64,000 bases of DNA, taken from Spirochaetia bacterium. GTDB taxonomy: Bacteria; Spirochaetota; Spirochaetia; CAKZLE01. The notes beneath the pieces were generated by a model that saw only the letters and a program-made list of their open reading frames with translations, was not told the DNA's origin and did not search any database. The position numbers and the translations under genes are program-made. How positions within the stretch are numbered: position 1 is the stretch's first letter; the number at the start of each line of letters is the position of its first letter. The stretch spans positions 4,000,001 to 4,064,000 of the forward strand of contig OY782041.1 in NCBI GenBank assembly GCA_963677595.1, written 5' to 3'. This document shows positions 36,723 to 61,474 of this stretch, one piece after another.

Positions 36723-36725
36723 GTA

Positions 36726-38542: not shown

Positions 38543-38557
38543 AGTCAGTCTGTACTA

Positions 38558-39856: not shown

Positions 39857-39954
39857 CTTACAACCCCTTATCTCTTGTAGAGTTACGCTGCAGAACGTGA
39901 AGGCCTTATACACTCCTGCAACTGTATGTGTCATTGTAGGGCACAATGCGAATC

Positions 39955-39976
39955 AAACAATGCCATGTGGCATGTT
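39955..39976. promoter_or_regulatory. Putative Crp/Fnr-family activator site (copy 1)
   Basis: AAACAATGCCATGTGGCATGTT, identical to 43766-43787; minus-strand -10 TACAAT at 39938-39933. Confidence 0.7.
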
Positions 39977-40079
39977 CATACCATTCTTTGAAAAAACTTT
40001 CCGATCTCCGTTTCAGCTATACGACCTGCAGGTAGCATACTCTGAGAGAATAAACTGGTAATTGGTGTGAAGTGACCTG

Positions 40080-40808
40080 TCATATTTGATCGAACAGATC
40101 TTCTTCGCGCTTCAAGAAGCCCGAGATACGCTCCATCTGCACTGCAGAGATGGTGATCTTTTTCTTGATGATGGATGCCATATCACGATCGACTAATTCC
40201 CTGCAAAGGCGGTACATGGTCCTGATGCTCATTCCGAGTTCCTGACAGATGGCTTCCCTGGTCTCTTTCACGATTATGACTTCCGCAGGTTGAACCTTCC
40301 TTCCATATTGCTGATAAATAAAGTTAACCAGTGAATAGTATCCACTGTAGACAACCATCTTTCCATGAGAATTGATGGACGGGTACAGTTGCTGTGCGAA
40401 GATCCTTACCAGCTTCTTTAGGGCATGAGAATCTTCATCGAGCCAGCGGGAAAGGACACTCTTCCTGATCCTGATATACGAGGACTTTTCTGCTGCTTCG
40501 ATCGTAGTAGTGGCTATGGAGTACCCAGAGAAGAATTCCAACAAGCCGCTGAGAGACCGGCCGCTCCTATTGGTACTACGGGTTGAGGAGAACTCGAACA
40601 CCCTGCCATTGTTGAACTCATTGATGACCCGGTTGTTACCAGCATACAGAATATAGACAAAGGGGTTCTCTGTCCCTTTCGTGATGATCTTATGTCCTGC
40701 CGGGACGGTAATCAGTTCCAGCTGGGCAATGAAGCGTCTGGGCATGTCAGCAAATAGGTCCTGTAGCCATTGATTCGTTTCGATAACCTGCTTCACACTC
40801 ATTTCCAT
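40080..40808 (-). CDS. Crp/Fnr-family transcriptional regulator
   Basis: cNMP-like N-terminal domain; HTH TREAICQELGMSIRTMYR. Confidence 0.85.
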   Translation of the reverse strand: MEMSVKQVIETNQWLQDLFADMPRRFIAQLELITVPAGHKIITKGTENPFVYILYAGNNRVINEFNNGRVFEFSSTRSTNRSGRSLSGLLEFFSGYSIATTTIEAAEKSSYIRIRKSVLSRWLDEDSHALKKLVRIFAQQLYPSINSHGKMVVYSGYYSLVNFIYQQYGRKVQPAEVIIVKETREAICQELGMSIRTMYRLCRELVDRDMASIIKKKITISAVQMERISGFLKREEDLFDQI

Positions 40809-40841
40809 ACCGCTTGTCTCCTCTTGTGGGCAGTATACAAT

Positions 40842-42323
40842 CTAACCATCCAAAAGAGCCATACCTTCACTATCACCAAGCTGCTCAAGCTCGTCTCCTA
40901 GCATCCTCCGAAAAGGCTCTGCCAGTTCTTCATCATCTTTCAGGTTATGCAGTTCGTAGGGATCCCGCTCTAAATCATAGAGTTCAGAAATATCATCCTC
41001 ATTCACAGTATACTTATGCGTACCGGTAATCAGGGTCCTGCTCATACAGGTATCGCGGTACCCCTGCCCGTAACTCTCAAGCATCATCTGTGTCCTGCCG
41101 GGTCTCTCAAGTCGGCATACGGGAAGGAGGCTCTCCCCGTCAATCGGTTGTGAGAACGTGATCCTGGCAGCATCAAGGATGGTCGGGGCGATATCGATCG
41201 AATTCACGAGATTGTTCATCCTGCTGCCGCCGTACTCATTCCGGGGCAGTTTCAGAGCCAACGGGATACGCACAGTCTCCTCTGTCATGAATGAGCCTTT
41301 ATCGAATATCCCCCCATGACTACCGAGTCCATCTCCGTGATCACTGGTCCATATGATCAATGTATCTTCATACATGCCGAGTTCTTTCAGTTTCTGGATG
41401 ACCAATCTGGCAGCATCATCTGTCATGGTGGTCTGTGCATAGGCCTTCACCATGATGTCACGCCACTCTTCCCATGAGAAGATACTCGGGATAATCAACT
41501 TGAACTGTTCATCTGCAATCGGCCTGTTCATGTTCCGATAGGTCCCTGGTTTGTTCGAGAGATCATCTGAGAAATTACCATATTCCCTTATCTGAGAAGC
41601 ATCATACATATCGACGAATTCCTGAGTTGGAAAATAGGGTTGATGCGGACCCCATAGATCCAGTCTCAAGTGGAATGGCCCCTGACCATCCTCACGGGCT
41701 AGCTGTTCCAACTGCCTGCAGGCCATATCAGCCAGGAAGTATCCCTCATGTGTCTCTTTCGGTGTGGTCGTGATGCCTACACACGGTTCTCCACACCAGG
41801 TATGAGTACAATGATAATGGTCATTGCCTTCATAGAGTTCCCGAAACTGCTTCTTTGATGAGTTGTTCCAGAAATATCTCTCGATGCTGTGCTCGGCAGG
41901 GGGAAGTCCCTTACGTCCTATGTACTCCTTATATTCTTCAGTGATATAAGGATTCCCATAGAACTCTGGACAGAATCCTTCTGCATGATGATCCAGAGCT
42001 GTTCCGGGACCCGCATGCCATTTCCCGAAATAGAAATTCCTGTATCCAGCTTCCGAGAGCTTATCAAGATAGATCTCGTGATCATAGGGAGATTCCGTCT
42101 GGTTGTGAATATTCCGATGATGGTGAGGATAGAGCCCTGTTAGCAGAGTCCTCCGTGCCGGCCCGCACAGGGGAGTGACCGCATAAGCACGTTCGAAGAG
42201 AACAGAATCCTTCGCCAGTGCATCAAAACCCGGGTGCAGCGGCTTTTCGCCGCCATCCCAACCATGTCGATAATGGAGCTGATGATCTGTTACGATCATC
42301 ACGATATTTGGTTTCCTATTCAC
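40842..42323 (-). CDS. Cys-type sulfatase
   Basis: KPNIVMIVTD, CGPARRTLLTG, GKWH, TSDHG. Confidence 0.92.
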   Translation of the reverse strand: MNRKPNIVMIVTDHQLHYRHGWDGGEKPLHPGFDALAKDSVLFERAYAVTPLCGPARRTLLTGLYPHHHRNIHNQTESPYDHEIYLDKLSEAGYRNFYFGKWHAGPGTALDHHAEGFCPEFYGNPYITEEYKEYIGRKGLPPAEHSIERYFWNNSSKKQFRELYEGNDHYHCTHTWCGEPCVGITTTPKETHEGYFLADMACRQLEQLAREDGQGPFHLRLDLWGPHQPYFPTQEFVDMYDASQIREYGNFSDDLSNKPGTYRNMNRPIADEQFKLIIPSIFSWEEWRDIMVKAYAQTTMTDDAARLVIQKLKELGMYEDTLIIWTSDHGDGLGSHGGIFDKGSFMTEETVRIPLALKLPRNEYGGSRMNNLVNSIDIAPTILDAARITFSQPIDGESLLPVCRLERPGRTQMMLESYGQGYRDTCMSRTLITGTHKYTVNEDDISELYDLERDPYELHNLKDDEELAEPFRRMLGDELEQLGDSEGMALLDG

Positions 42324-42335
42324 ATCACTCCCCTG

Positions 42336-43715
42336 TTATTCCTTCCATGCCTCTAACACATTATACTCAGGAAGTTCAGAAATCATATTGATTCCATCAA
42401 ACTTCTCTGACGTATATAAGGAGAAGAATGCTTTGATCCGTTGCTGGAGCTCCTGTTTGATCTCTTGGTACTCAGATTCATGATAGAAGTTTTGAACCTC
42501 GTCCGGATCACGCACAAGGTCCGTTAATAGGGATTTCCCTTCGTCAGGGAACTCTATCAGTTTATATCGGTTGGTCTTTACCATCCTGACTGGACCATAC
42601 TCCCCAAAGTGAATATCCTCCCATGTGCTGGCGTCTCCCTGATTCGTGACAAGGGATAGGAAACTCCTGCCTGGGTATGTGCAGTTTTCCGGGCACCTGA
42701 TCCCAGCAGCGTCGAGGATAGTCTGGAAGAGATCTGTATGATTGACGAATTGGCTTCTTCTCTGTCTGTTGAAGAGCCTGTCAGGGCTATACAGGATCAT
42801 CGGGACACGGATTGACTGTTCAAGCATGTTCACCGGGTAGGTGGCATTCCCTTTACCCCACAGTCCATGATCCCCGCAGTTCAGCCCGTGATCTGATGTA
42901 TAGATGATGATGGTATTCTCTAATAACCCCTGGCCTTCCAATTCATCAAGAATGGTTCCTACTGATTCATCGATCTGGGTTACTGCTGCATAATACTGGC
43001 AGAGCGCCTCGACAGGATCTTTGCGTGTATCATCAAGCGACTCGTTCCTCTGGATCCCGAACGGGTAATGCACGCTGTTGTCCCGAGATGATACACCTTT
43101 ATCACGATACATATTCACCAGCCGCTCAGGATGATTCCGCCACTGGCTATGTGTTGCATAATGGCCGATGGTCAGGAAGAAAGGCTTCTCAGTCTCCCGG
43201 GATCTCAGGAATGTTACAGCTTCATTCGTGATGGTCCTCGTCAAAGGTCCCTCACAGGTCACGGGTTCTGCCCCCCGATAGAACGTCCTTGGTCCCCCAT
43301 GGTTGATGGGATATGCCGTACCTATGGAAAATGAGTAATCAAATCCGGTTTTCGGTATCAGTTCCTGGCCAAGATGCCACTTCCCGATGAGAGCAGTCTG
43401 GTAGGAGTGCTGCTTGAATATCTCCTGAAGAGTCAGCTCATCCTTCATCCAGTACTTGTTATCATCACGGTCAGGAGTATTCCCAAGATAGTCATGGACC
43501 CCATGCTGTGATGCGTACCGTCCAGAAAATAAACATGCTCGTGCTGGGGAACAAACAGGCGTCGGAGTGAACGCATTCTCCATGACAACACCCTGGTCAG
43601 CCAAGTAATCAAGATTTGGCGTCTCCACAAACGCATCTCCATAACAACTATTTGCCCACGCGGCATGATCATCAGTCACAAATAGTACAATATTCGGTTG
43701 TTCTTGCATAAACAC
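42336..43715 (-). CDS. Cys-type sulfatase
   Basis: QPNIVLFVTDD, CSPARACLFSG, GKWHLG, TSDHG. Confidence 0.92.
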   Translation of the reverse strand: MFMQEQPNIVLFVTDDHAAWANSCYGDAFVETPNLDYLADQGVVMENAFTPTPVCSPARACLFSGRYASQHGVHDYLGNTPDRDDNKYWMKDELTLQEIFKQHSYQTALIGKWHLGQELIPKTGFDYSFSIGTAYPINHGGPRTFYRGAEPVTCEGPLTRTITNEAVTFLRSRETEKPFFLTIGHYATHSQWRNHPERLVNMYRDKGVSSRDNSVHYPFGIQRNESLDDTRKDPVEALCQYYAAVTQIDESVGTILDELEGQGLLENTIIIYTSDHGLNCGDHGLWGKGNATYPVNMLEQSIRVPMILYSPDRLFNRQRRSQFVNHTDLFQTILDAAGIRCPENCTYPGRSFLSLVTNQGDASTWEDIHFGEYGPVRMVKTNRYKLIEFPDEGKSLLTDLVRDPDEVQNFYHESEYQEIKQELQQRIKAFFSLYTSEKFDGINMISELPEYNVLEAWKE

Positions 43716-43999: not shown

Positions 44000-45266
44000 T
44001 CACAGGAACTGCGGTTGATGCGTATCATGCCAGGGCGCAAGTTTCTCTATGGCCCGGGCTGCCCTGAAAACCAGTTCATCATTGAACCGGTTGGCTAGGA
44101 TCTGCAGGCCCACCGGCATGCCGTTCACAAAACCCGCAGGGATGCTTATGGCGGTCAATCCAAGTATGTTTGCGAAAGATGTGAATGCGGAACTCGATGT
44201 TTCCCTATACGCCTGGTATGGATACGGCATCTCGAAGGGATCTTCCGGTCGTAGAGGGGAGATGATGTTCAAGGTGGGGGTGCACAGGAGATCATAGGTC
44301 TCGAATATACCGTCCGCCCACAGCTTGAGGTTCTTTCGTTCACGTAAGGCCTCTATCTTCTCTTCCTTTGTGGTCGGAGCTGCCCCGGCGTGGGTTATGC
44401 CCATCATCTTTCTTGTCGCGGGATTGAGGAGCCCCATCTTCTCAGCTGTCATCTCCCCAAGGACAGCTAACCGGTCTTTTGACATCATGATGGTTTTAGT
44501 CCCGATCTCCATGAAATCTTCCGGGATCCTGATATCTGCATCACCTATGAGTGCACCTGCCTGCTCGAACAGGCTGAATGTGTCATGAATCCGCTTCGTC
44601 ACGTCTGGTTCATAATCGGACCTGGTGAAGCTGTCTTGAACAACTCCGGCAGCTGTTCGGGGATCCTACCCGGGCTGGGGAAGAACCCGACCACCCCGTT
44701 GTGGTGCGAGGGTATACGGGTGGAGCCGCCGCCGTCACTGCCGATCGAGAACGGTGACATCCCTGCTGCGACTGAGGCGCCGCTCCCGCCGCTGGAGGCC
44801 CCGCTTATCCTTGAAGGATCCCAGGGGTTCACGGCTTCCCCGGCGATCGAGGTAACGGTCCGTGTCGTCATCGCGAACTCACTGGTCTGAGTCTTGCCCA
44901 GAATGATCGCCCCAGCGTCCTTCAGTCGTTCGATGAATAGCTCGTTCGTTACCGGCATGTAATCTTTCAACAGTTCAGACCCACGGGTTGTCGGGTACCC
45001 GGAGTAATCGTAGAGATCCTTGACAGAGACCGGAAGTCCGCACAGCGGTCCCTGCTCCTCCCCCCCCGTGCTATTGCCTCATCGATTGCCTTGGCTTCTG
45101 CTAACACCATCTCTTCCTGTACGCTGATGTAGGCATGCAGTACCGGTTCAAACTGCTGTATTCGATCCAGGTAGTGCTTCGCGACTACCACAGCGGATAG
45201 TTCTCCAGATCTGATCATCTCGACCAGTTCATATCCCGGTACCCAGGTTATCTCTTTCGTATTCAT
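44000..45266 (-). pseudogene. Amidase-signature (GatA-like) family pseudogene
   Basis: Three fragments; frameshift at the C8 run 45060-45067; second break near 44610; GASSGGS and GSDGGGSTRIP motifs present. Confidence 0.85.
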
Positions 45267-45551: not shown

Positions 45552-46109
45552 TGACATCCTCCCCGACCCAAGGGTCGGGGTATCCTAGTCATTGGTTAAA
45601 ATCAAGTTCTATCTGACCCGAATAGATTTTCTTGTATTCGTCCTGTTTCCCTTGATTCTCTATGTATCTTCTTATGGTTTCCTTCCCTGCGTACAGCCCA
45701 ACGGTATTTGCGTAAAACCCTGCTGTCCACAAAGATCCTCCCCATAGCTGTTCCCGTCTAATCTTTGGATGCCTCTTAAAGATCTCCCTTGCGGTGATAC
45801 TTTTGATGGTCGTTACGATTTTACTCACAGCCATCGTCGGAATCCCTTGTACCAAAAAGTGCACATGGTCTTCTTCCAATCCTATCTCGATAAATCGTAA
45901 CTCGTATCGTTGTTCGATTCCCAGGCAAATCTCTTTTAGGCTTTCCTCTACCTCACGGGTAAAGATCTTCCGTCTATACTTTGCCGGAAATACCAAATGA
46001 TACATTAGAAGGCTCTTGTTATGACTTTTATAGATATGTTCATCCATCCTTCTAATGTATCATACTCAACCGCCCCAAGGGGCGGGGAATGTAACCCCCT
46101 TCAGATTCA
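45552..46109 (-). mobile_element. IS200/IS605-family element, tnpA only (558 bp)
   Basis: Subterminal hairpins CCCCGACCC-AA-GGGTCGGGG and CCGCCCC-AA-GGGGCGG; minus-strand end GGGAGGATGTCA; no target duplication. Confidence 0.88.
45589..46047 (-). CDS. tnpA: IS200-family Y1 HUH transposase
   Basis: YHLVFPAKYRR, DHVHFL (HUH), LWGGSLW, IRRYIENQ. Confidence 0.95.
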   Translation of the reverse strand: MDEHIYKSHNKSLLMYHLVFPAKYRRKIFTREVEESLKEICLGIEQRYELRFIEIGLEEDHVHFLVQGIPTMAVSKIVTTIKSITAREIFKRHPKIRREQLWGGSLWTAGFYANTVGLYAGKETIRRYIENQGKQDEYKKIYSGQIELDFNQ

Positions 46110-46573: not shown

Positions 46574-46855
46574 ATGATAAATTCCTTTAAAGACAAGGAA
46601 ACCGCAAAGGTCTGGGACCAAACGTACTCGAAGCGATTGCCAAAGGATATCCAGCGCATCGGTCTCAGGAAACTGATCATGCTGCATAAGGCAAGAGACC
46701 TGAATGATCTGAAAGTCCCTCCAGGGAATCGACTGGAATTCCTATCGGGAGATAGAGAAGGTCAGTATAGTATTCGGATCAATGAACAATGGAGAATCTG
46801 TTTCAGGTGGAATCAAGGACAGATTGAAGATGTAGAGATCGTAGATTACCACTAG
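46574..46855 (+). CDS. higB: HigB toxin (RelE/ParE superfamily)
   Basis: MINSFKDKET...PPGNRLE...YSIRINEQWRICF...IVDYH; promoter TTGACG-N17-TATTAT with an inverted repeat in the spacer. Confidence 0.92.
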   Translation: MINSFKDKETAKVWDQTYSKRLPKDIQRIGLRKLIMLHKARDLNDLKVPPGNRLEFLSGDREGQYSIRINEQWRICFRWNQGQIEDVEIVDYH

Positions 46856-46864
46856 GAGAAGAAC

Positions 46865-47158
46865 ATGGACAGGATACCTGATATTACACCCGGTGAGATT
46901 TTGTATGAAGAATTCCTCATCCCCATGCATATCACAGCCTATCGTCTCGCAAAAGACACGAAAATACCGGCAACCCGCATTTCAGAAATCATCAAAGGCC
47001 GCAGGAAGATAACAGCAGACACAGCCTTGAGACTTTCTGCCTACTTCGGCAACTCAGCTGAGTTCTGGGTTGGTATCCAGGCTGAATATGATCTCAGACG
47101 CGAGAGACGCAGAATCTCAGATGAACTGATGACTATCCCACATATTGAGGCATCATAG
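46865..47158 (+). CDS. higA: HigA antitoxin
   Basis: PGEILYEEFL...RISEII...ITADTALRL...FW..Q..YDL. Confidence 0.92.
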   Translation: MDRIPDITPGEILYEEFLIPMHITAYRLAKDTKIPATRISEIIKGRRKITADTALRLSAYFGNSAEFWVGIQAEYDLRRERRRISDELMTIPHIEAS

Positions 47159-50941: not shown

Positions 50942-50968
50942 TTGTATCAAATTCGTCTTTTAAAGATG
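50942..50968. repeat. Island-boundary direct repeat, left copy
   Basis: TTGTATCAAATTCGTCTTTTAAAGATG; 25/27 identical to 61366-61392. Confidence 0.8.
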
Positions 50969-51259: not shown

Positions 51260-52546
51260 TTATCTCAATATCCGCAGGAAAATGAGCAACTGCATAACCA
51301 TGAGGCCCAATCCAAGATAGACAAATTGCTGCCAGAACCCCCTCTTCCGTTCTGCAGCCTCTGGCATATTCGCGATACAGATTGCCCCGGCATCTGAGAA
51401 CGGCGAGAATCCTGCAAACATCGCTCCTGCTGCAATATATGAGAACAATACGGCAGGGGCCATACTAGTGAAATCACCTATTGAGAAAACCAGCTGCCCT
51501 AACGTCGGTATGACCACACTGAACGAGCTGGAGAACAGGCTCATTACTGCAGCAATAAGCGTAATAATGTATTTTACCAAGTCTGATGCCACATTTGCCT
51601 GCAGCAGCTGAATGAGGGTATCGATAAACCCTGCCTCTGCAGCCATATCTATCATGACCCCCATACCACAGACTAAGATGATCGTAGACATGGGAACCAT
51701 TTTCAGAGCATCCTCTTCAGTGCCGATCTTGAATACCATTCCCAGTATTGCAGCCAACGTACAAACCCACATAATATCCATTTTTGAACGTACGTACGTC
51801 AAGAAACTGATTCCAGGGAAAATTGAAGCCAGAAATGGCGGCACAATGACAAGAATGACCGATGCAATGATAAGAATCAGGGTAGTCCGCTGTTTTTGAT
51901 TGAATGCTTGCGGTCTTTCCAGATCAGTGGCACTGAGCTTATAACATTTTGTGATGATATATAGTCCTGTAAACATGATGAAATGAAGTATCGTAACATT
52001 CCGAAGGGTACTATAGATAATCGTATCTGCCATCTCCGGGAACCCTTGGGTATTGCAGATATTATATACGATCATCCCTCCCATGGATATTGGTGTAAAA
52101 CTACCTGCTGACGCACCAAACAGAATAATCGCAGACCCTAATAGTTTCGGCATTCCGATCTGAGTAGCGATAGACATGACCATCGGGGTAAGGAAGACCA
52201 GGACAGCAAAAGGTCCAGCTCCCATGCCCCCGATAATGAATGCAGTCACCCACAGTACGTATGGAATGATCGGGGCGAAGTTACGAGCCATATAAACAAG
52301 TTTCCTCCCCATGAGATCAATCGTCCCATTGACGATGGCAAATCCATAGAAGAACGTCACCGCGAATAATCGGAAAAACAGACTGATCGGCCAGGATGCG
52401 ATGACCTGTGACGCAGATTTGTCCATAACGAAAATACCGATGATGAAACTGAGAATCAAGGCAATATAGCCAATGTTAACTTTCAGAATAAGGCTTAATA
52501 TGATGGTTAGAATGATTGCGTAAATAAATAGTATTGGTAAACTCAA
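51260..52546 (-). CDS. SLC13/MatC-like (di)carboxylate/anion transporter
   Basis: 428 aa polytopic; KVNIGYIA, WPISLFFRLFAVTFFYGFA, FSPFSDAGA; TTG start with RBS AAGGAG. Confidence 0.75.
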   Translation of the reverse strand: MSLPILFIYAIILTIILSLILKVNIGYIALILSFIIGIFVMDKSASQVIASWPISLFFRLFAVTFFYGFAIVNGTIDLMGRKLVYMARNFAPIIPYVLWVTAFIIGGMGAGPFAVLVFLTPMVMSIATQIGMPKLLGSAIILFGASAGSFTPISMGGMIVYNICNTQGFPEMADTIIYSTLRNVTILHFIMFTGLYIITKCYKLSATDLERPQAFNQKQRTTLILIIASVILVIVPPFLASIFPGISFLTYVRSKMDIMWVCTLAAILGMVFKIGTEEDALKMVPMSTIILVCGMGVMIDMAAEAGFIDTLIQLLQANVASDLVKYIITLIAAVMSLFSSSFSVVIPTLGQLVFSIGDFTSMAPAVLFSYIAAGAMFAGFSPFSDAGAICIANMPEAAERKRGFWQQFVYLGLGLMVMQLLIFLRILR

Positions 52547-52600
52547 AGTGTTATCTCCTTACAAAACGTTTCAATTTTTTATGTTAAGTATTCAATGATT

Positions 52601-52855
52601 TCAGCCGCCGTGCGCCTGACCAAAAACGTATAATCTATCTTCCGGCTTCAATCGGGCATTTCCATCTGCCCGCCTATCGTTCAAAGCCACTACACTGGTA
52701 TTCATAATATCATCCCCGAAGATAGAATGAAGGAAGCCTTCAACCGTTGTCCCCTCTTCTACCTGCATACGTATCTCTTTTGCACGTTCCAAACCTGCGA
52801 AAGGTTCAGCTGGTGATATGTAAGACATAAACATGATATGAATCTTCTGCCCCAT
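52601..52855 (-). CDS. MoaD/ThiS-family sulfur carrier
   Basis: 84 aa; LKPEDRL motif; C-terminal GG; follows AOR. Confidence 0.82.
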   Translation of the reverse strand: MGQKIHIMFMSYISPAEPFAGLERAKEIRMQVEEGTTVEGFLHSIFGDDIMNTSVVALNDRRADGNARLKPEDRLYVFGQAHGG

Positions 52856-52858
52856 TTC

Positions 52859-54586
52859 TTATATATCCATTCCATATGGTAATGCGCTTTGGACATCCTC
52901 ATCAGGAATATCAAATACGCGATTATCAACGGACGGCAAGCCCTCTGTATACATGAACTCAGGCAATCGATCATCCTTCTGGGTGAATCCAGCCAGACGA
53001 TTAAACTCTTTTTCCATACCCAGACACTCTGTCGCCAATGCAAACAATTTGCCTCTATCCCAATCACCACCGAACTTGCCCTTCATGATGTCTGCCAGCA
53101 GAGGCCAGCTGTCAGGATTTCCTGCGCAGGAGCTTGCGAAAATGCATGCTCCCATCAGATCAAAGAGCGCAAAAATTACCTGCATTGTATTGGATACTTT
53201 TACTTTACCCTCATTCTCATAGGAATTTGGATCCATGTTCCTAGTCGGCGCATTTCCTGCTGTATGGTCTGCCCCCATCGGAGAGATCGCATAGGTGATA
53301 CCAGTACCTTTCAATCCTCTGGGATCATAGCCCGCCATGGACTGTTTCTTGACGGTCGGTATCCTGCTCACCCCGAAATGCGTTCCAGCATAATAGGTAC
53401 CGTTACCTAATACTCGGCCAAGCTCAGTACCTTCTTGCAGTTCTTTGAATAACCCGCGGACTGCCTCCTGGTCTCCCCATCCGATGATTCCGGCTTCCAT
53501 GCACACAGCAAGGGTACAGCCAAGTTCCATGGTATCAAGTCCTAGATCGTCGCATTGACGATCCATCCAGGCGATGAAATCGAGGTCATCGATTTCACAG
53601 TTCGGTCCACAGAGTGCAATTGTTTCATATTCCAGGGCTGAAGTCACATGGTTACCTGCAGGATCAACATACTCGTTGGAACATTTTATAACACAGCCTC
53701 TCTGGCACGCATGGCCAGTCTTCCCTCCGCGTTCGTTGATCATCTCTGCCATCTTCTCACCGGATACATTCCCTGCCTTATCCCAACGTCCATCACTGTA
53801 ATTCTTTACGGGCATCCATCCCATGGTATTACAGATCCTCACCAATGAGGCAGTACCCAGGTAGGGCAGCACGTCTTTGACCGTCGGGACGTTACGCAAT
53901 AGCTGGATATATTCACGATTGGCTTTGAGAAACGTATCCTTATCATAATATGAGGCCGGGACCTTCACCTTATCCTGCTTCAACACTATTGCCTTGATGT
54001 GCTTACTTCCCATCACGGCACCCATTCCACCTCGCGCAGCCGCACGAGCCGGATATTTATCAAGATCTGTGATCTGGACGGAAGAATTGAGATACTGCCG
54101 CTCTCCAGCGATGCCAATCGATATAACGGCAATCTTATCCCCGAAATCTTCCATCAATTTCTCTGTCAGAGCGTAATTATTCAAACCCATATAGGAATCT
54201 GCCTCTATAAGCTCCGCATCGTTATCCGTTATTTTGATAATGTACCATGATTCATCTGCAGGTTTTCCCTCCAGGACAATCGCCTTTATACCGAGAGATC
54301 CCATCATCCCTGCAGCAATACCACCAGAATTAGCTTCCTTGATACCGCCAGTCAGAGGACTCTTGCCCCCTATCGACAGACGAGAGGAAGTCGTGAATGC
54401 TGTATTGTTTAGAAGTCCATTACAACATATGAATTTATTTTCAGGCCCTAACGGATCACATTGAGGATTCACTTCATCAAGCATCAGTTTGACGATAAGA
54501 CTTCTACCACCATACATCTGCATCTCTTGGGGAAATTCCTCCCATACTAATTCCTTTCTATCAGCTTTATAACTTAGCCTGTTCAT
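52859..54586 (-). CDS. aor: Aldehyde:ferredoxin oxidoreductase (tungsto-pterin AOR family)
   Basis: KSPLTGGIKEANSGG, RGGMGAVMGSK, CQRGCVIKC, EYET, DDLGLD, YDPRG, GADH. Confidence 0.93.
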   Translation of the reverse strand: MNRLSYKADRKELVWEEFPQEMQMYGGRSLIVKLMLDEVNPQCDPLGPENKFICCNGLLNNTAFTTSSRLSIGGKSPLTGGIKEANSGGIAAGMMGSLGIKAIVLEGKPADESWYIIKITDNDAELIEADSYMGLNNYALTEKLMEDFGDKIAVISIGIAGERQYLNSSVQITDLDKYPARAAARGGMGAVMGSKHIKAIVLKQDKVKVPASYYDKDTFLKANREYIQLLRNVPTVKDVLPYLGTASLVRICNTMGWMPVKNYSDGRWDKAGNVSGEKMAEMINERGGKTGHACQRGCVIKCSNEYVDPAGNHVTSALEYETIALCGPNCEIDDLDFIAWMDRQCDDLGLDTMELGCTLAVCMEAGIIGWGDQEAVRGLFKELQEGTELGRVLGNGTYYAGTHFGVSRIPTVKKQSMAGYDPRGLKGTGITYAISPMGADHTAGNAPTRNMDPNSYENEGKVKVSNTMQVIFALFDLMGACIFASSCAGNPDSWPLLADIMKGKFGGDWDRGKLFALATECLGMEKEFNRLAGFTQKDDRLPEFMYTEGLPSVDNRVFDIPDEDVQSALPYGMDI

Positions 54587-54625
54587 ATACCACCTCTCCT
54601 TTTGGCTAATTATATTTCAAATTAT

Positions 54626-54641
54626 AGCAAAAACAATGCCA
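54626..54641 (-). promoter_or_regulatory. Sigma54 -24/-12 promoter of the AOR operon
   Basis: Minus strand TGGCATTGTTTTTGCT (GG-N10-GC). Confidence 0.85.
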
Positions 54642-54901
54642 ATTCCTAATTTATAAGTTCTGAAGAACATGCAATACCAGAAATACTGATTGCTTACAAT
54701 TCATTACCACGCATCTAGACAGTGTCCTGAAAAAGGTTGAACACGAATCATCCCACTCGTATCTCTTCAATACCTGCCCCCTAAGCATATTTTACGTATC
54801 CTTATACCGATTGCTATGAGATCTCGATTCTATTGGAGAAATTATCCAATATCAGCTCTTCGCTGAGAATTTCCTGCTCTCCTCAATTAAGACTGACATA
54901 T

Positions 54902-54949
54902 TGTAAGACTTGTTTACAAGCATGATATAGCATGTAAAGTATGTTTCCA
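54902..54949. promoter_or_regulatory. Tandem upstream activator sequences
   Basis: TGTAAGACTTGTTTACA and TGTAAAGTATGTTTCCA, 31 bp apart. Confidence 0.65.
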
Positions 54950-55057
54950 TTATTTATTTGCTTCCGGTATGTTCTTAGGTTATAATCAAAAACTTGATGA
55001 AACTTAGTGGTTTACATCCGATAATGTATGGTCTGGATGACCTAAGGAGCTGTAGAC

Positions 55058-56554
55058 ATGGCGCATGAAGTAATGAACGCTTTTATAGCTAATTTGGACA
55101 AGAATGGTCTGGATGGGAAAAACTTTGTAGACTCCATGAGAGACACATTGAAATATATGGAGATTCCAGATATCGCATATTTGATCGTCAACAGAAGCTA
55201 CCAGATAGTATACTGTACGGATAACTATCCAGCATTGATCGAGATAGATACTTCGGTAAACGGGATAATCGGTAAGACGATCTCAAACCTGATCGGGGAG
55301 TTCCTCTATGATAAGGATCCTTCCATTATAGACAAGAAATGCCTGGCCTCAGCCATTAATGCATTTCAAACCAAATCCTGTGTACACTCTCTTCGAAGGC
55401 TGCTCAGCGGTAAGGAACTCATGGTGTATGCAAAGCCTATCCTCGACAGAGCAGGAGAAGTCCTCTGTGTCTTGAACAGTGTCATCAACGTCACGGACGT
55501 CGATCAACTGCGGAACAAAGTCACTACATTTTATGAGGTACTGGGAATCAACATCTCATCGAACTTTAAAGTAAAGATGATCTCTGAGAGTGAGGTACAT
55601 AAAAAAACGATTGCACGAGCAAATCGAGCTGCCGAATTCGAAGCGAACGTACTCATCACAGGAGAGAGTGGAAGCGGTAAGGATGTACTTGCTAAGTATA
55701 TCCATTTCTGCAGTAAGCGCAGAAATAAGAGATTGATTCAGATAAATTGCTCAGCCATACCAGAAAGCTTGTTAGAGAGTGAACTTTTTGGATATGAGGG
55801 AGGCGCATTCTCCGGAGCGAAACGCAAAGGGAAACTCGGGCTTCTGGAGCTGGCGAATCATAGTACCATCTTCTTAGACGAGATTGGAGATATCCCGCTA
55901 GCAACGCAGGTAAAACTGCTTAATTTCATCCAGGACCGAGCGTTCTATCGTGTAGGGGGAACAGAGAAGATCGAGGTCGATATTCGTATCATAGCGGCTA
56001 CCAATGCAGATCTCAGGCTGAAGATTGATAATAACCAGTTTAGGGAGGACCTGTATTATAGACTAAATACCATCCCGATCAGTATTGCCCCGTTGAGAAA
56101 TCGCAGGGAAGATATAATCCCTCTTATTGAACAATTCGAATATGAAAGTAATCTGCAATATAAAATGGATAAACATTTTTCCATCGAGGCAAAAAGCTTC
56201 CTCCTATCCCTTGACTGGCCGGGAAATATCAGGGAGATGCAGCATTGTGTAGAGCGTTTGATGATCCTGACAGAGAAGGAGACCATTGAGGTTGACGATA
56301 TCCTAGCTGATCAGCAATATGACGGCAAACAGAAATCCACTGTTCATACCAATAGTGATGAGGATGAGGGAGTGCTCGTGAAATCCCTGAAAGCTGTTGA
56401 ATACCATCTACTGAAGAAGACTGCTGAAGAGTATGATTCCAGTCGAAAGATCGCAGCGGTCCTAGGTATTAGTCATACTGCGGTCAACTCCAAATTAGCT
56501 AAGTATGGTATTGCCATCAACGGAAAGAAGAAATCACAGCCAGGAATCTTGTGA
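55058..56554 (+). CDS. Sigma54-dependent transcriptional activator (PAS-like + AAA+ + HTH)
   Basis: GESGSGKD, ESELFGYEGGAFSGA, FLDEIG, FREDLYYRL, WPGNIRE; C-terminal HTH. Confidence 0.93.
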   Translation: MAHEVMNAFIANLDKNGLDGKNFVDSMRDTLKYMEIPDIAYLIVNRSYQIVYCTDNYPALIEIDTSVNGIIGKTISNLIGEFLYDKDPSIIDKKCLASAINAFQTKSCVHSLRRLLSGKELMVYAKPILDRAGEVLCVLNSVINVTDVDQLRNKVTTFYEVLGINISSNFKVKMISESEVHKKTIARANRAAEFEANVLITGESGSGKDVLAKYIHFCSKRRNKRLIQINCSAIPESLLESELFGYEGGAFSGAKRKGKLGLLELANHSTIFLDEIGDIPLATQVKLLNFIQDRAFYRVGGTEKIEVDIRIIAATNADLRLKIDNNQFREDLYYRLNTIPISIAPLRNRREDIIPLIEQFEYESNLQYKMDKHFSIEAKSFLLSLDWPGNIREMQHCVERLMILTEKETIEVDDILADQQYDGKQKSTVHTNSDEDEGVLVKSLKAVEYHLLKKTAEEYDSSRKIAAVLGISHTAVNSKLAKYGIAINGKKKSQPGIL

Positions 56555-56821
56555 GCATGATCGATATCTAAGGATGAATCCATCTTGATACCATTGGCCG
56601 TACATTGGTGATGGGATCTGAAACTGCAAGCCTAGAGCAACAAGGGAAAAACTGATACAACGGTATGAGAACTTTTCGATATCTGCAGCATCTCTGCTCC
56701 TTGATATCTGCCAAAACTCCATGATCCAGGATTCAAAATCCAGTTGAGCTCAATAGATTCTGTATGACATGCCAGACAGTAAAAACAGCAGCAATCTAGA
56801 ACAAAGGGATTAATAGAATAT

Positions 56822-56869
56822 TGTAAACATTTTTTACGAAAATATAGATTCCTGTAAACATGTCTTGCA
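56822..56869. promoter_or_regulatory. Tandem upstream activator sequences
   Basis: TGTAAACATTTTTTACG and TGTAAACATGTCTTGCA, 31 bp apart. Confidence 0.65.
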
Positions 56870-56931
56870 GCATATACTGATTATGAGACAAATCGATAGG
56901 ACTGCATTGGTTACTCACCATATTCTTTCTA

Positions 56932-56947
56932 TGGCATGATAATTGCT
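56932..56947 (+). promoter_or_regulatory. Sigma54 -24/-12 promoter of the GRE operon
   Basis: TGGCATGATAATTGCT; RBS AAAGGAGGAG follows. Confidence 0.88.
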
Positions 56948-56994
56948 TATTACTTTTACATATTTCTTAATCTTTCTAAAGGAGGAGATTAATT

Positions 56995-59433
56995 ATGGCT
57001 GAAATGATGGAACTAGCCGAAAAAGAACGACTAGGGATGGTCACAGCAATGGGCAGCACGGACAGAATCCGGAGACTGAGCCATAAGTCCTACACAACAC
57101 CACAATCAATCTGTTTACACCGAGCAAGAGCTTATACTGAAGTTTTTGCTGAAACAGAAGGTGAACCAATAGAATTGAGACGTGCAAAAGGCTTCAAAAG
57201 AGCATTGGAGACTGTACCGGTTCTCATTGAAGAAGATGAACTTGTTGTTGGTAATCGTGCTTGTCGTATCCGAAGCGTGCCTGTCATTCCAGAGTGTCAT
57301 GGGGCTTGGCTTCAATGGGATCTGGAAAAGCTTCCGACTCGTGAGCAGGATTCTTTTGAAGTACCCCCAGAGCAGATGAAAGAGGCAAAAGAACTTCTGG
57401 CATTCTGGAAAGGAAAAACCATCTTTGATGAATGGGCTGCAACAGTGCCTGGGAATATGGCAGACAAACTGCTTGGGACAGGATGGGCCGATATTGCCTG
57501 CGGTGTCTTTTTCCTGGGGTACCATTTCACCCCACCATGGGAAAAAATCGTAAATGGGGGAATAAAGGCTTTTGAAGATGAAGTAGATGCACGCTTGGAC
57601 AGCCTTGATTACCTGAAAAATCCACAGGATATGGGAAAAGAGGTCATTCTTAAGGCCTTTAAAACCATCATCGAAGGGATTAAGATCTTCGCTGCCCGGT
57701 ATGCTGAAAAAGCACGGGAACTTGCTGCTACTGAAAAGAATGCTACAAGAAAACAGGAGTTACTCCGAATCGCAGAAAACTGTGATCGTGTTCCCTATTA
57801 TCCAGCCAGAAATTATTACGAAGCCATACAGTCAGTCTGGTTTGTACATACCTTGATGCATGTTGAGGGAACTGGGCCCGTCTATACGTTGGGACGTTTT
57901 GATCAATACATGTATCCATTTTATAAAGCCGATTTAGAAAGTGGTGCCATCACGAAAGAAGAGGCGGTGGAACTACTTGAGAATTTCTATATCAACTGCA
58001 ACAACAACCTGTTCCTGTATGATACACAGTCTGCCTATAATTCCGCAGGTTTCACACAGTACCAGGTAATCTCTCTTGGTGGAGTAGATGAAACCGGCAA
58101 AGATGCTTCTAATGTTATCACTTATCTCTGCCTTGATGCTGCAAAGACCCTAAGGACTGTACAGCCAGACCTATCATTACTGTGTCACCCCAGGGAAACG
58201 CCGTATGAATTGAAAATGAAAGCTGCTGAACTGGTAAGGGAAGGACTGGGCCTGCCAAAGTTCCATAGTACAGAAACGATCAAGACCGGCTTAATGTCCC
58301 TGGGATATACCCTGGAAGAAGCCCGTATGGGATGGGTCAGGGGCTGTAGTGAATTGTACGGTCCGGGATCAAAGCAGTACGGGCATACAGCAGGGGCTTT
58401 TGTGAACATCACCATGGCTCTTGAAGCTGCTCTGTTCAATGGGATCAAGCAGGTTAAAGGACAAAAATGGAGTGGCGAACAAATTGGGTTAGCAACTGGC
58501 AATGCAGAGGATTTCTCTAGCTACGAGGAACTGGTCGACGCATTGAAGGCACAGTTGACGTTCATGCTCCAGGAATCGCACATTGGCGGATCGTATATGG
58601 AATTGGCTCAGAAGAATTTCCCGCAGCTCCTCCAGAGTCTGTTCACTGACGATTGTATAGGTTCATGCTTACCTGCGAATGCCGGCGGGGCAAAAATCAA
58701 TGTCGGTCCAGGTCTGGCAATCTGTAGTGGATGGGCAACGATCGCTGACTCACTCGCTGCCATCAAGAAGCTGGTCTTCGAAGAGAAACGAATTACCATG
58801 CATGAGCTGTTAGAAGCACTTCAGGCTGACTTTGAAGGCTATGGAGCAATCCAGAAGATGCTGTTGAACAATGCCCCTAAATTCGGGAATGACATTGACT
58901 ATGTAGATGACATTGCACGGGACATATTCAAGCATGTACATGATGAAGGAAGGAAACTGGTTGGGATCAATGGGAATATCAACAGTGTAGGTACTGATAT
59001 ATCTGTCTCCCACATCATATTTGGTTCCTTTATAGGTGCTACACCAGATGGTAGGAATGCAGGAAAAGCTCTTTCTGACAATGTCGGACCATCTGACCAG
59101 AGAGATGTCAACGGTCCGGTAGCCCACATCAATTCTGTGACTAAAATGCCAATTGAACGAGAATTCGGGTCGATCCATAACATCTATCTGACCAATATCG
59201 ACACCGAGGACAAGATGCATGACATGATTCATCTGGTTGATACCTACCATATGCGAGGAGGCCATCACCTGCAGATAAACTGTATTGACAAGAACGTGTT
59301 ACTAGATGCACAGAAGACACCGGAAAAATACCCTTCACTGATAGTCAGGGTTGCCGGATACTGTGCATATTTCAACGATCTGTCAAAGTATGTTCAGGAT
59401 TATATTATATCTCGAACTTCCGTGAACTTCTAA
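56995..59433 (+). CDS. Glycyl radical enzyme (PFL2/dehydratase-like), substrate unknown
   Basis: RVAGY glycyl loop (Gly788); single-Cys loop RGCSE (Cys451); GRFDQYMYP, PKFGND, ATPDGR. Confidence 0.93.
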   Translation: MAEMMELAEKERLGMVTAMGSTDRIRRLSHKSYTTPQSICLHRARAYTEVFAETEGEPIELRRAKGFKRALETVPVLIEEDELVVGNRACRIRSVPVIPECHGAWLQWDLEKLPTREQDSFEVPPEQMKEAKELLAFWKGKTIFDEWAATVPGNMADKLLGTGWADIACGVFFLGYHFTPPWEKIVNGGIKAFEDEVDARLDSLDYLKNPQDMGKEVILKAFKTIIEGIKIFAARYAEKARELAATEKNATRKQELLRIAENCDRVPYYPARNYYEAIQSVWFVHTLMHVEGTGPVYTLGRFDQYMYPFYKADLESGAITKEEAVELLENFYINCNNNLFLYDTQSAYNSAGFTQYQVISLGGVDETGKDASNVITYLCLDAAKTLRTVQPDLSLLCHPRETPYELKMKAAELVREGLGLPKFHSTETIKTGLMSLGYTLEEARMGWVRGCSELYGPGSKQYGHTAGAFVNITMALEAALFNGIKQVKGQKWSGEQIGLATGNAEDFSSYEELVDALKAQLTFMLQESHIGGSYMELAQKNFPQLLQSLFTDDCIGSCLPANAGGAKINVGPGLAICSGWATIADSLAAIKKLVFEEKRITMHELLEALQADFEGYGAIQKMLLNNAPKFGNDIDYVDDIARDIFKHVHDEGRKLVGINGNINSVGTDISVSHIIFGSFIGATPDGRNAGKALSDNVGPSDQRDVNGPVAHINSVTKMPIEREFGSIHNIYLTNIDTEDKMHDMIHLVDTYHMRGGHHLQINCIDKNVLLDAQKTPEKYPSLIVRVAGYCAYFNDLSKYVQDYIISRTSVNF

Positions 59434-59460
59434 CTGAGTAAACTTGACCGGGTGATAACA

Positions 59461-60411
59461 ATGACGAAGGAAACCAAAACGAACCTAAGGAACCGAGACC
59501 AGGCATTCATCTTCAAGATTGATAGATATGCAACTCATGATGGTCCCGGGATCAGAACTACTATCTTCTTTAAAGGCTGTCTGATGAACTGCACATGGTG
59601 CTCCAATCCTGAGAGCCAGAAGACAACAGCTGAGCTTGGTTTCCTCAAGATGAAGTGTGTTGGCTGTGGCACCTGTATCAACAGCTGCCATGCCGATGCT
59701 CTTTCCCTGAAAGATGAAAAAGCGACCATTAATAGGGAACTGTGCGATAACTGCTTCGACTGTGTGCCAGTGTGTCCATCAAACGCACTGCAGATCTATG
59801 GCTACGAGGCTACTTTACCGGAATTAATGGATATCTTGAATCGAGATAGGCACATCTACCGTCGTTCCGGCGGTGGTGTGACCTTGACCGGTGGCGAACC
59901 GACTCTGCAGTATTCTTTCGTGAAAAAATTGCTGGAAGAATGCAGGCGGGTCGGAATCCATACAACGTTGGAAACTTGCGGGTTCTCGAGTCCAGAAGAT
60001 TTCAAGCAGTTATTACCCTATGTTAACTGGTTATATTTTGATCTGAAGCATTGTGACCCGGATCACCATCGAAAGGTAACAGGGAACTCAAACAAGATCA
60101 TCTTGCAGAATCTTACCTTTGCATCCCACTACATGCAGGAACATGGCAAACCTCTGGTAGTCAGACAAGTTGTTGTTCCTGGAATTAATGATACTCAGTG
60201 GATCGGCAGGATGGTTGAGCTGATTAGTCAGTTACCCTATGTGACAGCCATGGAGTTTTTACCATACCATAATTATGGTATGGACAAGTATGCCGCTATC
60301 GGGAAGGTGTACGATCTCACGGATGTAAGACCTCCCGCAGAATCAGACCTGAAAACATATGTTGAAATGGCAGAAGCCAGAGGTCTGAAATGTACTATTG
60401 GAGGACTGTAG
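59461..60411 (+). CDS. GRE activating enzyme (radical SAM with ferredoxin-like insert)
   Basis: HDGPGIRT, GCLMNCTWCSNPE, two CxxCxxCxxxC motifs, GGEP; start may be GTG 59452. Confidence 0.93.
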   Translation: MTKETKTNLRNRDQAFIFKIDRYATHDGPGIRTTIFFKGCLMNCTWCSNPESQKTTAELGFLKMKCVGCGTCINSCHADALSLKDEKATINRELCDNCFDCVPVCPSNALQIYGYEATLPELMDILNRDRHIYRRSGGGVTLTGGEPTLQYSFVKKLLEECRRVGIHTTLETCGFSSPEDFKQLLPYVNWLYFDLKHCDPDHHRKVTGNSNKIILQNLTFASHYMQEHGKPLVVRQVVVPGINDTQWIGRMVELISQLPYVTAMEFLPYHNYGMDKYAAIGKVYDLTDVRPPAESDLKTYVEMAEARGLKCTIGGL

Positions 60412-60463
60412 AGTAGATGAATCAATAGAACCAATAGTATAAAAAAACAAATAGGAGACAATA

Positions 60464-61105
60464 ATGAGTGATATTAAAAAGGCAACCAGTGCGCCTGTAG
60501 TAATGTTTATAATAGCTATTCTGGCATTCGTAGATGGAATTAACCTGCTCGGTTTCTTACCACCAGAAACAACACTTCTCCGAGGAGTCTTCGCAACCCT
60601 AGCCTATCCTACATATTATTTTGCAGCAAAGAACCACCTAGAAATCGGTGATGAGCTTTTTGCCAGGACGTTCTTATTCTTTGGATTATTCTTCTCTTTG
60701 ACAGGAATCATCATGCTGGTACAAATGTTCGCAACAATGGCAGGCATCCCCTATGATACCAAGATGATGGGCGTGGTATGGTTTGTAGTAGTTCTTTATC
60801 TGCTATCTGTAATGCCTGCATTCTGGTATGGCGATAAGGTCTGCCTGCTGTTCATGATCACTGCAACACTCGGCTTCCTGATAATGTCAATCGTCAACTT
60901 CCAGTTCAGTTTTAGCTTTTGGCCAGGATTTTTCGTCATTGCCGGGATTTCCTTCTCAATTACCGGTCTAACTGCTGCGTATTTCGGGATGTTCCTCATG
61001 CTGGTCCCTCTCGGAGTTGTTCTGCCATTAGGAAAACCAATCTTCAAAAAGAAAGAAACCGTTTCTGCAGGTTCAGTAAAAATAGCAACGTCGGAAGAAA
61101 TCTGA
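60464..61105 (+). CDS. Six-TM protein, SatP/GPR1-FUN34-YaaH (or AmiS/UreI)-like channel
   Basis: About 6 TM; ATSAPVVMF resembles NPAPLGL; C-terminal LPLGKP. Confidence 0.55.
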   Translation: MSDIKKATSAPVVMFIIAILAFVDGINLLGFLPPETTLLRGVFATLAYPTYYFAAKNHLEIGDELFARTFLFFGLFFSLTGIIMLVQMFATMAGIPYDTKMMGVVWFVVVLYLLSVMPAFWYGDKVCLLFMITATLGFLIMSIVNFQFSFSFWPGFFVIAGISFSITGLTAAYFGMFLMLVPLGVVLPLGKPIFKKKETVSAGSVKIATSEEI

Positions 61106-61365: not shown

Positions 61366-61392
61366 TTGTATCAATTTCGTCTTATAAAGATG
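61366..61392. repeat. Island-boundary direct repeat, right copy (abuts tRNA 3' end)
   Basis: TTGTATCAATTTCGTCTTATAAAGATG. Confidence 0.8.
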
Positions 61393-61474
61393 CCGGAAAC
61401 GAGACTTGAACTCGTACAGCTTTAAGGCCGGGGGATTTTAAGTCCCCTGTGTCTACCAATTCCACCATTCCGGC
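61391..61474 (-). tRNA. tRNA-Leu(TAA)
   Basis: GCCGGAATGGTGGAATTGGTAGAC...CT-TAA-AA...GTTCAAGTC...TTCCGGCA; long variable arm; CCA not encoded. Confidence 0.96.

Follow-up and report, generated by a model that had tools for sequence, protein, structure and literature searches.

A block of seven genes was identified at positions 51260..61105 of a 64,000-nucleotide stretch of the Spirochaetia bacterium genome GCA_963677595.1 (contig OY782041.1, positions 4,000,001 to 4,064,000; the whole stretch is called the window, and coordinates refer to it unless another contig is named). The block brings together a glycyl radical enzyme (GRE) and a tungstopterin aldehyde oxidoreductase (AOR), and the original prediction, made from the DNA letters alone, had described it as a transporter-moaD-aor arm, an activator gene and a GRE-activase-channel arm. 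All seven open reading frames (ORFs) were intact, without internal stops and in the order and at the coordinates predicted, and Pfam and NCBIfam searches confirmed the carrier, AOR, activator, GRE and activase, the moaD call being the weakest. On the minus strand lie a 428-amino-acid carboxylate carrier of the MatC/CitMHS type (SLC13-like; 51260..52546; MatC_N 6e-31, CitMHS 2e-13), a probable MoaD/ThiS-type sulfur carrier of 84 amino acids called from its size, C-terminus and position (52601..52855), and an AOR-family enzyme of 575 amino acids (52859..54586; AFOR_N and AFOR_C). On the plus strand follow a 498-amino-acid sigma54 enhancer-binding protein with a PAS-like N-terminus, an AAA+ domain and a TyrR-type helix-turn-helix (55058..56554; Sigma54_activat and HTH_50), the GRE of 812 amino acids (56995..59433), its radical SAM activating enzyme with a ferredoxin insert (59452..60411, or from an alternative ATG at 59461), and a 213-amino-acid six-helix channel from a divergent branch of the SatP (GPR1/FUN34/YaaH) fold (60464..61105). 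Neither the ORF list nor Pfam placed a microcompartment shell, aldehyde dehydrogenase, alcohol dehydrogenase, Pta or Ack gene in the block, so the absence claimed originally holds there, while dehydrogenases are encoded elsewhere in the genome. The block also contains no ferredoxin subunit gene.

A strict sigma54 pattern generated 26 matches in the 4.33-Mb genome and only two in the 64-kb window, at 54641 on the minus strand (54627..54641) and at 56932 on the plus strand (56932..56946), each directly upstream of one arm. Each arm is further preceded by two TGT-N11-ACA boxes 31 nt apart, located at 54902-54918 and 54933-54949 on the left (54902..54949) and at 56822-56838 and 56853-56869 on the right (56822..56869). 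Pairs of TGTAAA-N5-TTTACA, searched with up to two mismatches and at 29-33 nt apart, occur twice in the whole genome, both times at this block. As the box motif had been read from these same sites, cross-validation was performed: a profile trained on the right pair placed the left pair at rank 1 of 4,325,278 positions, and a profile trained on the left pair placed the right pair at rank 3. Together with the adjacent activator gene and the presence of rpoN in the genome, these predicted -24/-12 promoters and repeated upstream activating sequences (UAS) are the elements of a sigma54 enhancer-binding regulon, and the originally claimed promoters and UAS pairs on both arms were thereby upheld. The right boxes lie 71-102 nt from their promoter and the left boxes 269-300 nt from theirs; according to PMC6615313 the usual distance is 100-250 nt, and one box of the regulator AorR is listed at -397 in its supplement. 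The left pair coincides in part with a weak sigma70-like site in front of the activator gene. A TyrR box with a 6-nt spacer fits poorly, the spacer being 5 nt here; no IHF-like site was found at one mismatch, and sigma70 and terminator scans gave matches at chance level only. Taken together, these patterns suggest that the two arms probably form one regulatory unit under shared control, which is the best-supported inference of the analysis.

The GRE matches the PFL-like domain (PF02901) and carries a C-terminal glycine radical domain with the motif RVAGY, in which the predicted radical-bearing residue is Gly788, and the gene behind it passes the activase model TIGR02494 with 307 bits (cut-off 174), making it a dedicated radical SAM activase. 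A structure model of the GRE (pLDDT 94) has the 10-stranded barrel fold and superposes on solved GREs with TM-scores of 0.93-0.94, glycerol dehydratase, CutC and HypD being the closest. Sequence identity to solved GREs is at most 35%, or 35-36% for glycerol and propanediol dehydratases, and the protein falls below every NCBIfam cut-off; it comes nearest with TIGR01774, the model of the broad PFL2/glycerol dehydratase subfamily (571 of 678 bits). It belongs to a clade of about 80 protein clusters at 47-80% identity to it, with an outer ring at 39-45%, which is split off by a long branch (0.46, support 0.86 in a tree of a subset). The named members are metagenome-assembled genomes of Dehalococcoidia and other Chloroflexota, Syntrophorhabdales, Thermodesulfobacteriota, Peptococcaceae and one Pseudomonadota. 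Genome searches found the clade in 4 of 401 genomes in the class of a Dehalococcoidales genome, in 1 of 401 in the phylum of a Desulfomicrobium genome, and in 2 of 68, 2 of 202 and 2 of 7 genomes (both already found) of further sets; three other sets (162, 301 and 201 genomes, the last with protein P0011) gave no match. The large searches scored only 2-6 candidates per genome, and none reached the subclade at 57-66% identity. The GRE is accordingly placed in a separate, uncharacterised clade.

Known GRE families were compared one by one. Pyruvate formate-lyase has two adjacent cysteines on the Cys loop where this protein has a single one (TIGR01255, 141 vs 994 bits). Glycerol and propanediol dehydratases have Phe333 where Ser350 stands here (TIGR01774, as above); HypD has Asp278 and Asp339 in place of Pro295 and Gln355 (NF043068, 560 vs 1100 bits), and CutC has Asp216 and Phe389 in place of His177 and Ser350 (TIGR04394, 550 vs 1050 bits). 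For the sulfolyases IslA, IseG and HpsG, whose residues were mapped onto the GRE through the HypD positions in PMC8473560, Arg189, Gln193 and Arg678 are replaced by Phe173, His177 and Gly666; models of the group formed by these sulfolyases and HpfG gave 544 and 444 vs 1000 bits. For the GRE decarboxylases (HPAD, IAD, AAD and PAD, with no PAD model among those used), the family models scored lowest, with 390 of 1100 and 280 of 1150 bits; AAD was a weak structural match at rank 47, and no small-subunit gene is present in the block. The host genome encodes four GREs, and the other three, likewise unassigned (G000:C1 1109497-1123686 and 3508786-3511128), pass the broad TIGR01774 cut-off and reach no specific one. 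Among hosts of the clade, five genomes (G098, G589, G093, G229 and G135) contain between 18 and 31 AFOR_C matches; one of them, G098, also encodes 26 GRE candidates within 5 Mb.

Residue roles were transferred by alignment from PMC13450708, PMC8473560, PMC7077986, PMC12838924 and PMC12451663, and conservation was counted among clade proteins of at least 700 amino acids that are closer than the 39-45% ring. His177 and Cys451 are present in 79/79 of these proteins and Glu453 in 76/79; the His177 site is also His in 25/28 outgroup GREs and hence not specific to the clade. By alignment, the three residues correspond to the acid, the thiyl and the base used by C-O eliminases, so that an uncharacterised clade of eliminase type is supported. 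All six known C-O eliminases retain the CXE motif, which GRE isomerases share, and glycerol dehydratase uses His164 (PMC13450708). In three clade members (P0017, P0018 and P0065), Gly replaces the CXE glutamate, and these may catalyse other chemistry. The carboxylate ligands of HypD are Ser334, Thr645 and Tyr450, with Phe at the Ser334 site in other eliminases (PMC7077986); they align to Ser350, Ser670 and Phe469 of the GRE. Arg449 aligns to CutC Met487, counted among the residues near choline (PMC12838924), and is Arg or Lys in 28/35 nearest relatives vs 0/28 outgroup GREs, while position 670 is Ser in 35/35 nearest relatives. Position 469 is Lys or Arg in 20/44 sister-clade proteins, and Pro295 and Val296 give the pocket a non-polar beta-2 face. 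Ser350, Ser670 and Arg449, combined with the missing HypD, CutC and IslA residues, therefore point to a hydroxylated carboxylate without an amine as the predicted substrate. The anionic substrate proposed originally from the carrier is accordingly likely, with the pocket residues now added to that evidence.

The AOR shows 50-59% identity to many uncharacterised proteins of a widespread subfamily of about 570 amino acids. Its label was borne out by AFOR_N, AFOR_C and a DxxGxD motif, and its cofactor ligands are intact: in 60 aligned sequences, Cys294, Cys298, Cys302, Cys481 and the catalytic Glu are invariant and the His is present in 59. The cluster spacing is C-x3-C-x3-C, compared with C-x2-C-x3-C in the AOR of P. 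furiosus. The label of the moaD-like protein fared less well. Its size of 84 amino acids, C-terminal Gly-Gly and place behind aor agree with it; there was no Pfam match even at E 10, and one paralogue-like match in the genome was found at E 1e-6. Elsewhere, the host genome contains eight further AFOR matches (nine in all), rnfC, a fusion of Aldedh and Fe-ADH of AdhE size, seven Aldedh and 14 Fe-ADH matches, and no BMC match (PF00936) in an assembly that is 95.4% complete.

The channel gene generated no Pfam match, PF01184 included, and its 23 nearest relatives also miss Pfam. A structure model built with 23 distant relatives (pLDDT 90) retrieved SatP proteins as its six best matches (TM 0.73-0.75, E about 1e-5), so that the originally assigned SatP-like label is right at the level of the fold. 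Sequence searches with the channel profile and with the carrier found no solved structure; the nearest plasmid relatives of the carrier are 30-33% identical and annotated as SLC13 family permeases. Of 162 genomes searched in one Bacillota class, 45 contain the channel family. In 30 loci fetched from this family, the best-scoring ones end biotin carboxylase operons, mostly before a PAS sigma54 activator. Three of them (L230 in G1010, L231 in G1003 and L232 in G986) show a recurrent operon of carboxyltransferase and LamB subunits, biotin carboxylase and the SatP-fold channel with a divergent class III aminotransferase and a PAS sigma54 activator, an AOR gene being present in two of the three (not in L232); this operon may represent a route from a lactam through an amino acid and a semialdehyde to an acid. 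A further locus (L229, G1010:C2 about 75600-87400) contains a PocR-sensor kinase fused to a B12-binding domain, a response regulator, a diol-dehydratase-like GRE, an activase, a SatP-fold channel, a UroD-family protein and a RACo activator, that is, a GRE joined to a corrinoid methyl-transfer set. Channel relatives look like they occupy uptake positions in such loci. The original prediction had the carrier importing the substrate and the channel releasing the product; from the arm positions and the channel relatives, this is no better supported than the reverse. As the channel stands on the GRE arm and the dicarboxylate-type carrier on the acid-making arm, and given the positions of the channel relatives, import by the channel with export or exchange by the carrier is favoured, at modest odds.

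The block also differs from its genome in composition. Its GC content is 0.44 against 0.546 for the genome, and its GC3 is 0.45-0.51 against 0.68-0.76 in two flanking host genes. It is bounded by two 27-bp repeats that are identical at 25 of 27 positions, one at the left edge (50942..50968) and one at the right edge (61366..61392), where it abuts the 3′ end of a tRNA-Leu(TAA) gene (61391..61474, minus strand), the probable insertion site. Three more copies (G000:C1 about 2179404-2179430, 2209172-2209198 and 2221340-2221366) lie in a second region of low GC content, rich in transposases and beginning at tRNA-Leu(CAG) (genome 2.179-2.221 Mb). The 27-bp sequence borders two distinct tRNA-Leu genes at their 3′ ends, is found again within each of the low-GC regions beside them, with one copy next to a degenerate tRNA-Leu fragment, and looks like an attachment scar of repeated insertions. 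No GRE above 37% identity was found in 60 related genomes, and no plasmid record contained a relative at 60% identity or more (best of 173, 37%). In sequencing run X1, possibly the source sample, the block was one variant-free contig (50758-61391) ending at the tRNA, with fragmented and polymorphic flanks, and no joint between the two repeats was seen in that run. Because no integrase gene was found among the ORFs scanned, we only infer the mobility of the block; its horizontal acquisition as a catabolic module is likely. Low-depth contigs of run X1 agree with the window as far as the first activator box (56820) or the gap before the channel gene (60458) and then diverge, and a related locus with other neighbours may be present in that run. 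The left part of the same low-GC region contains three sulfatases and apparent ABC transporter genes (35388-43715, minus strand) as well as a HigB/HigA-type toxin-antitoxin pair (46574-47158, plus strand). An amidase-family gene in three overlapping pieces (44000-45266, minus strand) adjoins an IS200 transposase (45589-46047), with inverted repeats of 16 nt at 45997-46063.

On balance, and only somewhat more probably than otherwise, the GRE makes an aldehyde from an anionic hydroxy-carboxylate and the AOR oxidises this aldehyde without CoA. In this route, the PAS domain would sense the substrate or the aldehyde and fire both promoters, and the activase would install the radical at Gly788. Cys451 would then abstract a hydrogen from a terminal CH2OH group, with Glu453 deprotonating that group and His177 protonating the neighbouring leaving hydroxyl, which is the chemistry proposed for glycerol dehydratase, while Ser350, Ser670 and Arg449 would hold the carboxylate. 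The AOR would turn the resulting aldehyde-acid into a diacid with reduced ferredoxin, which Rnf could use; the SatP-fold channel would admit the monocarboxylate substrate and the MatC-type carrier would export or exchange the diacid. Such a route would need neither CoA nor a microcompartment. We tentatively place the substrate among C3-C5 acids with a terminal vicinal diol, which is a possible rather than a probable assignment. Candidate conversions would be 3,4-dihydroxybutyrate to succinate, glycerate to malonate, threonate or erythronate to malate, and 4,5-dihydroxypentanoate to glutarate; these come from chemical reasoning, and each compound taken singly is improbable. Non-radical enzymes convert 2-keto-3-deoxy-pentonate to 2-oxoglutarate semialdehyde, and this conversion, which mirrors the HypD skeleton, was ranked lower for that reason. 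Extending the idea to the whole clade, as a radiation of glycyl radical dehydratases for hydroxy-carboxylates with the module as a complete CoA-free and shell-free route from diol acids to dicarboxylates that yields its energy as reduced ferredoxin, is speculative and held with low confidence.

Several observations weigh against this route. At the GRE itself, position 350 is Ala in 18/35 nearest relatives and position 668 varies among D, A, N and H, so the clade may have several substrates; the residue roles are taken from sequence alignment, and PMC8473560 warns that strand shifts change which residues touch the substrate. The left boxes could serve autoregulation of the activator. The moaA-like gene of the host is below its cut-off (228 of 284 bits), and AdhE and the other dehydrogenases of the host could take the aldehyde, so that the lack of NAD- and CoA-linked enzymes in the block does not exclude their use. 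In a neighbourhood survey of ten other loci of the wider clade (39-54% identity, three on contigs of 7-11 kb, the 57-66% subclade lying outside the survey), eight had no AOR in the DNA examined, and carrier, channel and activator were found in none. Co-occurrence of GRE, AOR and an SLC13-type carrier, the originally suggested test, was limited to an AOR in two of ten loci, with the carrier in none. In favour of the route, the AOR of these two is co-oriented and within 3 kb upstream of the GRE, vs 0.07 expected (this window was set once the data were known): in L186 it immediately precedes the GRE, and in L192 a single short-chain dehydrogenase separates the two. Anywhere in the ten loci, 0.79 AORs are expected by chance (P 0.19), so that two are within chance, the close upstream position less so. 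These two AORs are only 26-28% identical to the one studied here and were therefore recruited separately.

Six of the eight hosts of the related loci contain 13-31 AFOR matches, and the other two contain 2 and 4. In keeping with a carboxylate substrate, Tct carboxylate transporters flank three of the ten loci; short-chain dehydrogenases, an enolase-family protein, an HpcH aldolase, a phosphotriesterase-family protein, acyl-CoA ligases and hydantoinase-family genes lie near others. A control set of at least 160 GRE loci was obtained with generic GRE patterns (32-38% identity, none in the clade proper at 47% or more). Among the matches listed for 160 of them, 76 of which are at least 15 kb long, four had an AOR in the DNA examined; a Fisher test of 2/10 vs 4/160 gave P 0.04, which is not relied on, as the loci are non-independent and host AOR counts differ. 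One control locus (L153:1099-8776) carries in one run a GRE (best specific model HpfG, 817 of 1000 bits), an activase, an AOR 39% identical to the one studied here, a SPASM radical SAM protein and two ThiS proteins. A further locus (L145:35-12364) carries MtmB, an amino acid permease, ThiS, an AOR with a flavin/Fe-S partner, and a GRE that is CutC-like but below cut-off; here an AOR may accompany a GRE that releases an amine. Given the two of ten clade loci and the AOR beside a different GRE in L153, the GRE-AOR pairing recurs, also with other GRE branches, but is no fixed trait of this clade.

Four other explanations were weighed against oxidation of a GRE-derived aldehyde-acid by the AOR. 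The first keeps the order of GRE and AOR and lets a small neutral diol, amino alcohol or ether enter by the channel, with the carrier only exporting the acid. The channel relatives give it substance, as one follows a GRE and activase beside the PocR-type sensor kinase (L229) and others end sigma54-type operons that look like lactam use (L230 and L231 with AOR, L232 without), and the non-polar face formed by Pro295 and Val296 would suit it. Arg449, Ser350 and Ser670 nevertheless favour an anion, and the pocket has lost Phe333, Asp447 and Tyr640, which in glycerol dehydratase surround the small diol; a neutral substrate is accordingly judged unlikely, but worth keeping in view.

In the second, also unlikely, the arms share the activator only, the AOR, of the known AorR aor-moaD type, scavenging aldehydes in general or reducing acids, and the GRE product being a ketone or isomer or going to AdhE. 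Sigma54-type aor-moaD with TGT-N10-12-ACA boxes has been predicted in nine Clostridiales species, with no GRE named there (PMC6615313), and, besides the related loci without AOR, several of which have short-chain dehydrogenases instead, the CXE motif kept by GRE isomerases allows such a product. Against it, the box pair with its 31-nt distance precedes both arms and ranks first genome-wide, and the AOR is kept in the island although the host has eight others, which suggests a dedicated substrate. The third, that the GRE is a decarboxylase or a C-S, C-P or C-N lyase acting on an anion of the aryl-acetate, sulfonate or phosphonate type, draws on the block's anion carrier, on the basic pocket residue and on the Lys or Arg at position 469 of sister-clade proteins. 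It is distinctly improbable given the loss of both sulfonate-binding arginines of IslA (Arg189 and Arg678) and of CutC Asp216, the bottom scores of the decarboxylase models and the missing small-subunit gene. The last, with the AOR acting first as reductase or oxidase to prepare the GRE substrate, for example an aldonic acid from a sugar aldehyde, could appeal to the reversibility of AORs (PMC9295118) and to a carboxylate-binding GRE taking the AOR product, but would leave the aldehyde or ketone made by the GRE without an enzyme in the block and is hardly credible.

The locus is thus read as a real module around an uncharacterised GRE clade, probably co-regulated and probably acquired, with a fair chance of new chemistry. 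A 2026 review lists six C-O eliminases, none acting on an acyclic hydroxy-carboxylate, and states that whole GRE clades are still without function; the terms "AOR" and "tungsten" occur in it 0 times (PMC13450708). Searches of titles and abstract openings outside subscription papers turned up none that describes this clade or a pathway joining GRE and AOR. Already known are sigma54-driven aor-moaD as a predicted regulon (PMC6615313), an AOR gene in a B12 eliminase cluster (PMC3543383) and GRE-AOR operons with other GRE branches. If the proposed route is true, sugar-acid-type compounds would be a substrate class new to GREs as reviewed there, in uncultured anaerobes of sediments and digesters, and oxidation of the aldehyde by an AOR would forgo substrate-level ATP in exchange for low-potential ferredoxin, unlike the NAD- and CoA-linked routes of textbook GRE clusters. 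As the clade combines a fixed catalytic core with a variable pocket, assigning a single member could give access to a whole family of new radical reactions in Chloroflexota, Syntrophorhabdales and Desulfobacterota that are still poorly known. Of all loci seen, this one offers the best entry to the clade, since a single 10-kb unit encodes the regulator with its boxes, the two transporters and the downstream enzyme, and the inducer can be found directly by means of this activator and its boxes.

Among known systems, the block resembles the B12-independent glycerol dehydratase DhaB1/DhaB2 (1R8W) and propanediol dehydratase (5I2G) in fold (TM 0.94), in identity (35-36%), in the His164-type acid (His177), in CXE and in the activase directly behind the GRE. 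It departs from them in Ser350 for Phe333, Pro295-Val296 for the beta-2 His-Ser pair and Arg449 for Ile, and in having an AOR as partner rather than an alcohol dehydrogenase or shell. With HypD (6VXC/6VXE), the GRE shares the equivalents of His160, Cys434, Glu436 and the aromatic Phe340 (Tyr356 here) and two of three carboxylate-binding positions; unlike HypD, it has lost the essential Asp278 and Asp339, and no P5C reductase lies nearby. CutC is alike in fold, 35% identity, CXE and a Thr at the Thr502 position, and differs by Met487 (Arg449 here), Phe389 (Ser350), Asp216 (His177) and its microcompartment. GRE microcompartment loci in general carry the shell and acylating aldehyde dehydrogenase genes that the block lacks. 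The channel shares the six-helix fold of SatP (5YS3, 5ZUG), and more distant relatives of it pass PF01184, while the channel itself is 15-18% identical to SatP and, with its 23 nearest relatives, outside Pfam. The AorR regulon of Clostridiales (PMC6615313), compared by its targets and box shape only, likewise has aor-moaD behind a sigma54 promoter with TGT-N10-12-ACA boxes; here, such boxes stand in front of a GRE operon as well, and moaD is followed by a carrier gene. In the ethanolamine ammonia-lyase cluster of Pelobacter carbinolicus with aorA2 (PMC3543383), an aldehyde-releasing radical eliminase is likewise clustered with an AOR gene, the eliminase there being B12-dependent, the cluster comprising 43 genes, the substrate being known and the proposal being genome-based. 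The sulfolyases IslA, IseG and HpsG and the DHPS dehydratase HpfG are, like the GRE as proposed here, eliminases of small anions that give aldehydes or ketones; the two sulfonate-binding arginines of IslA are absent from the GRE, and HpfG, which makes an aldehyde-sulfonate, is the closest chemical analogue of the proposed reaction.

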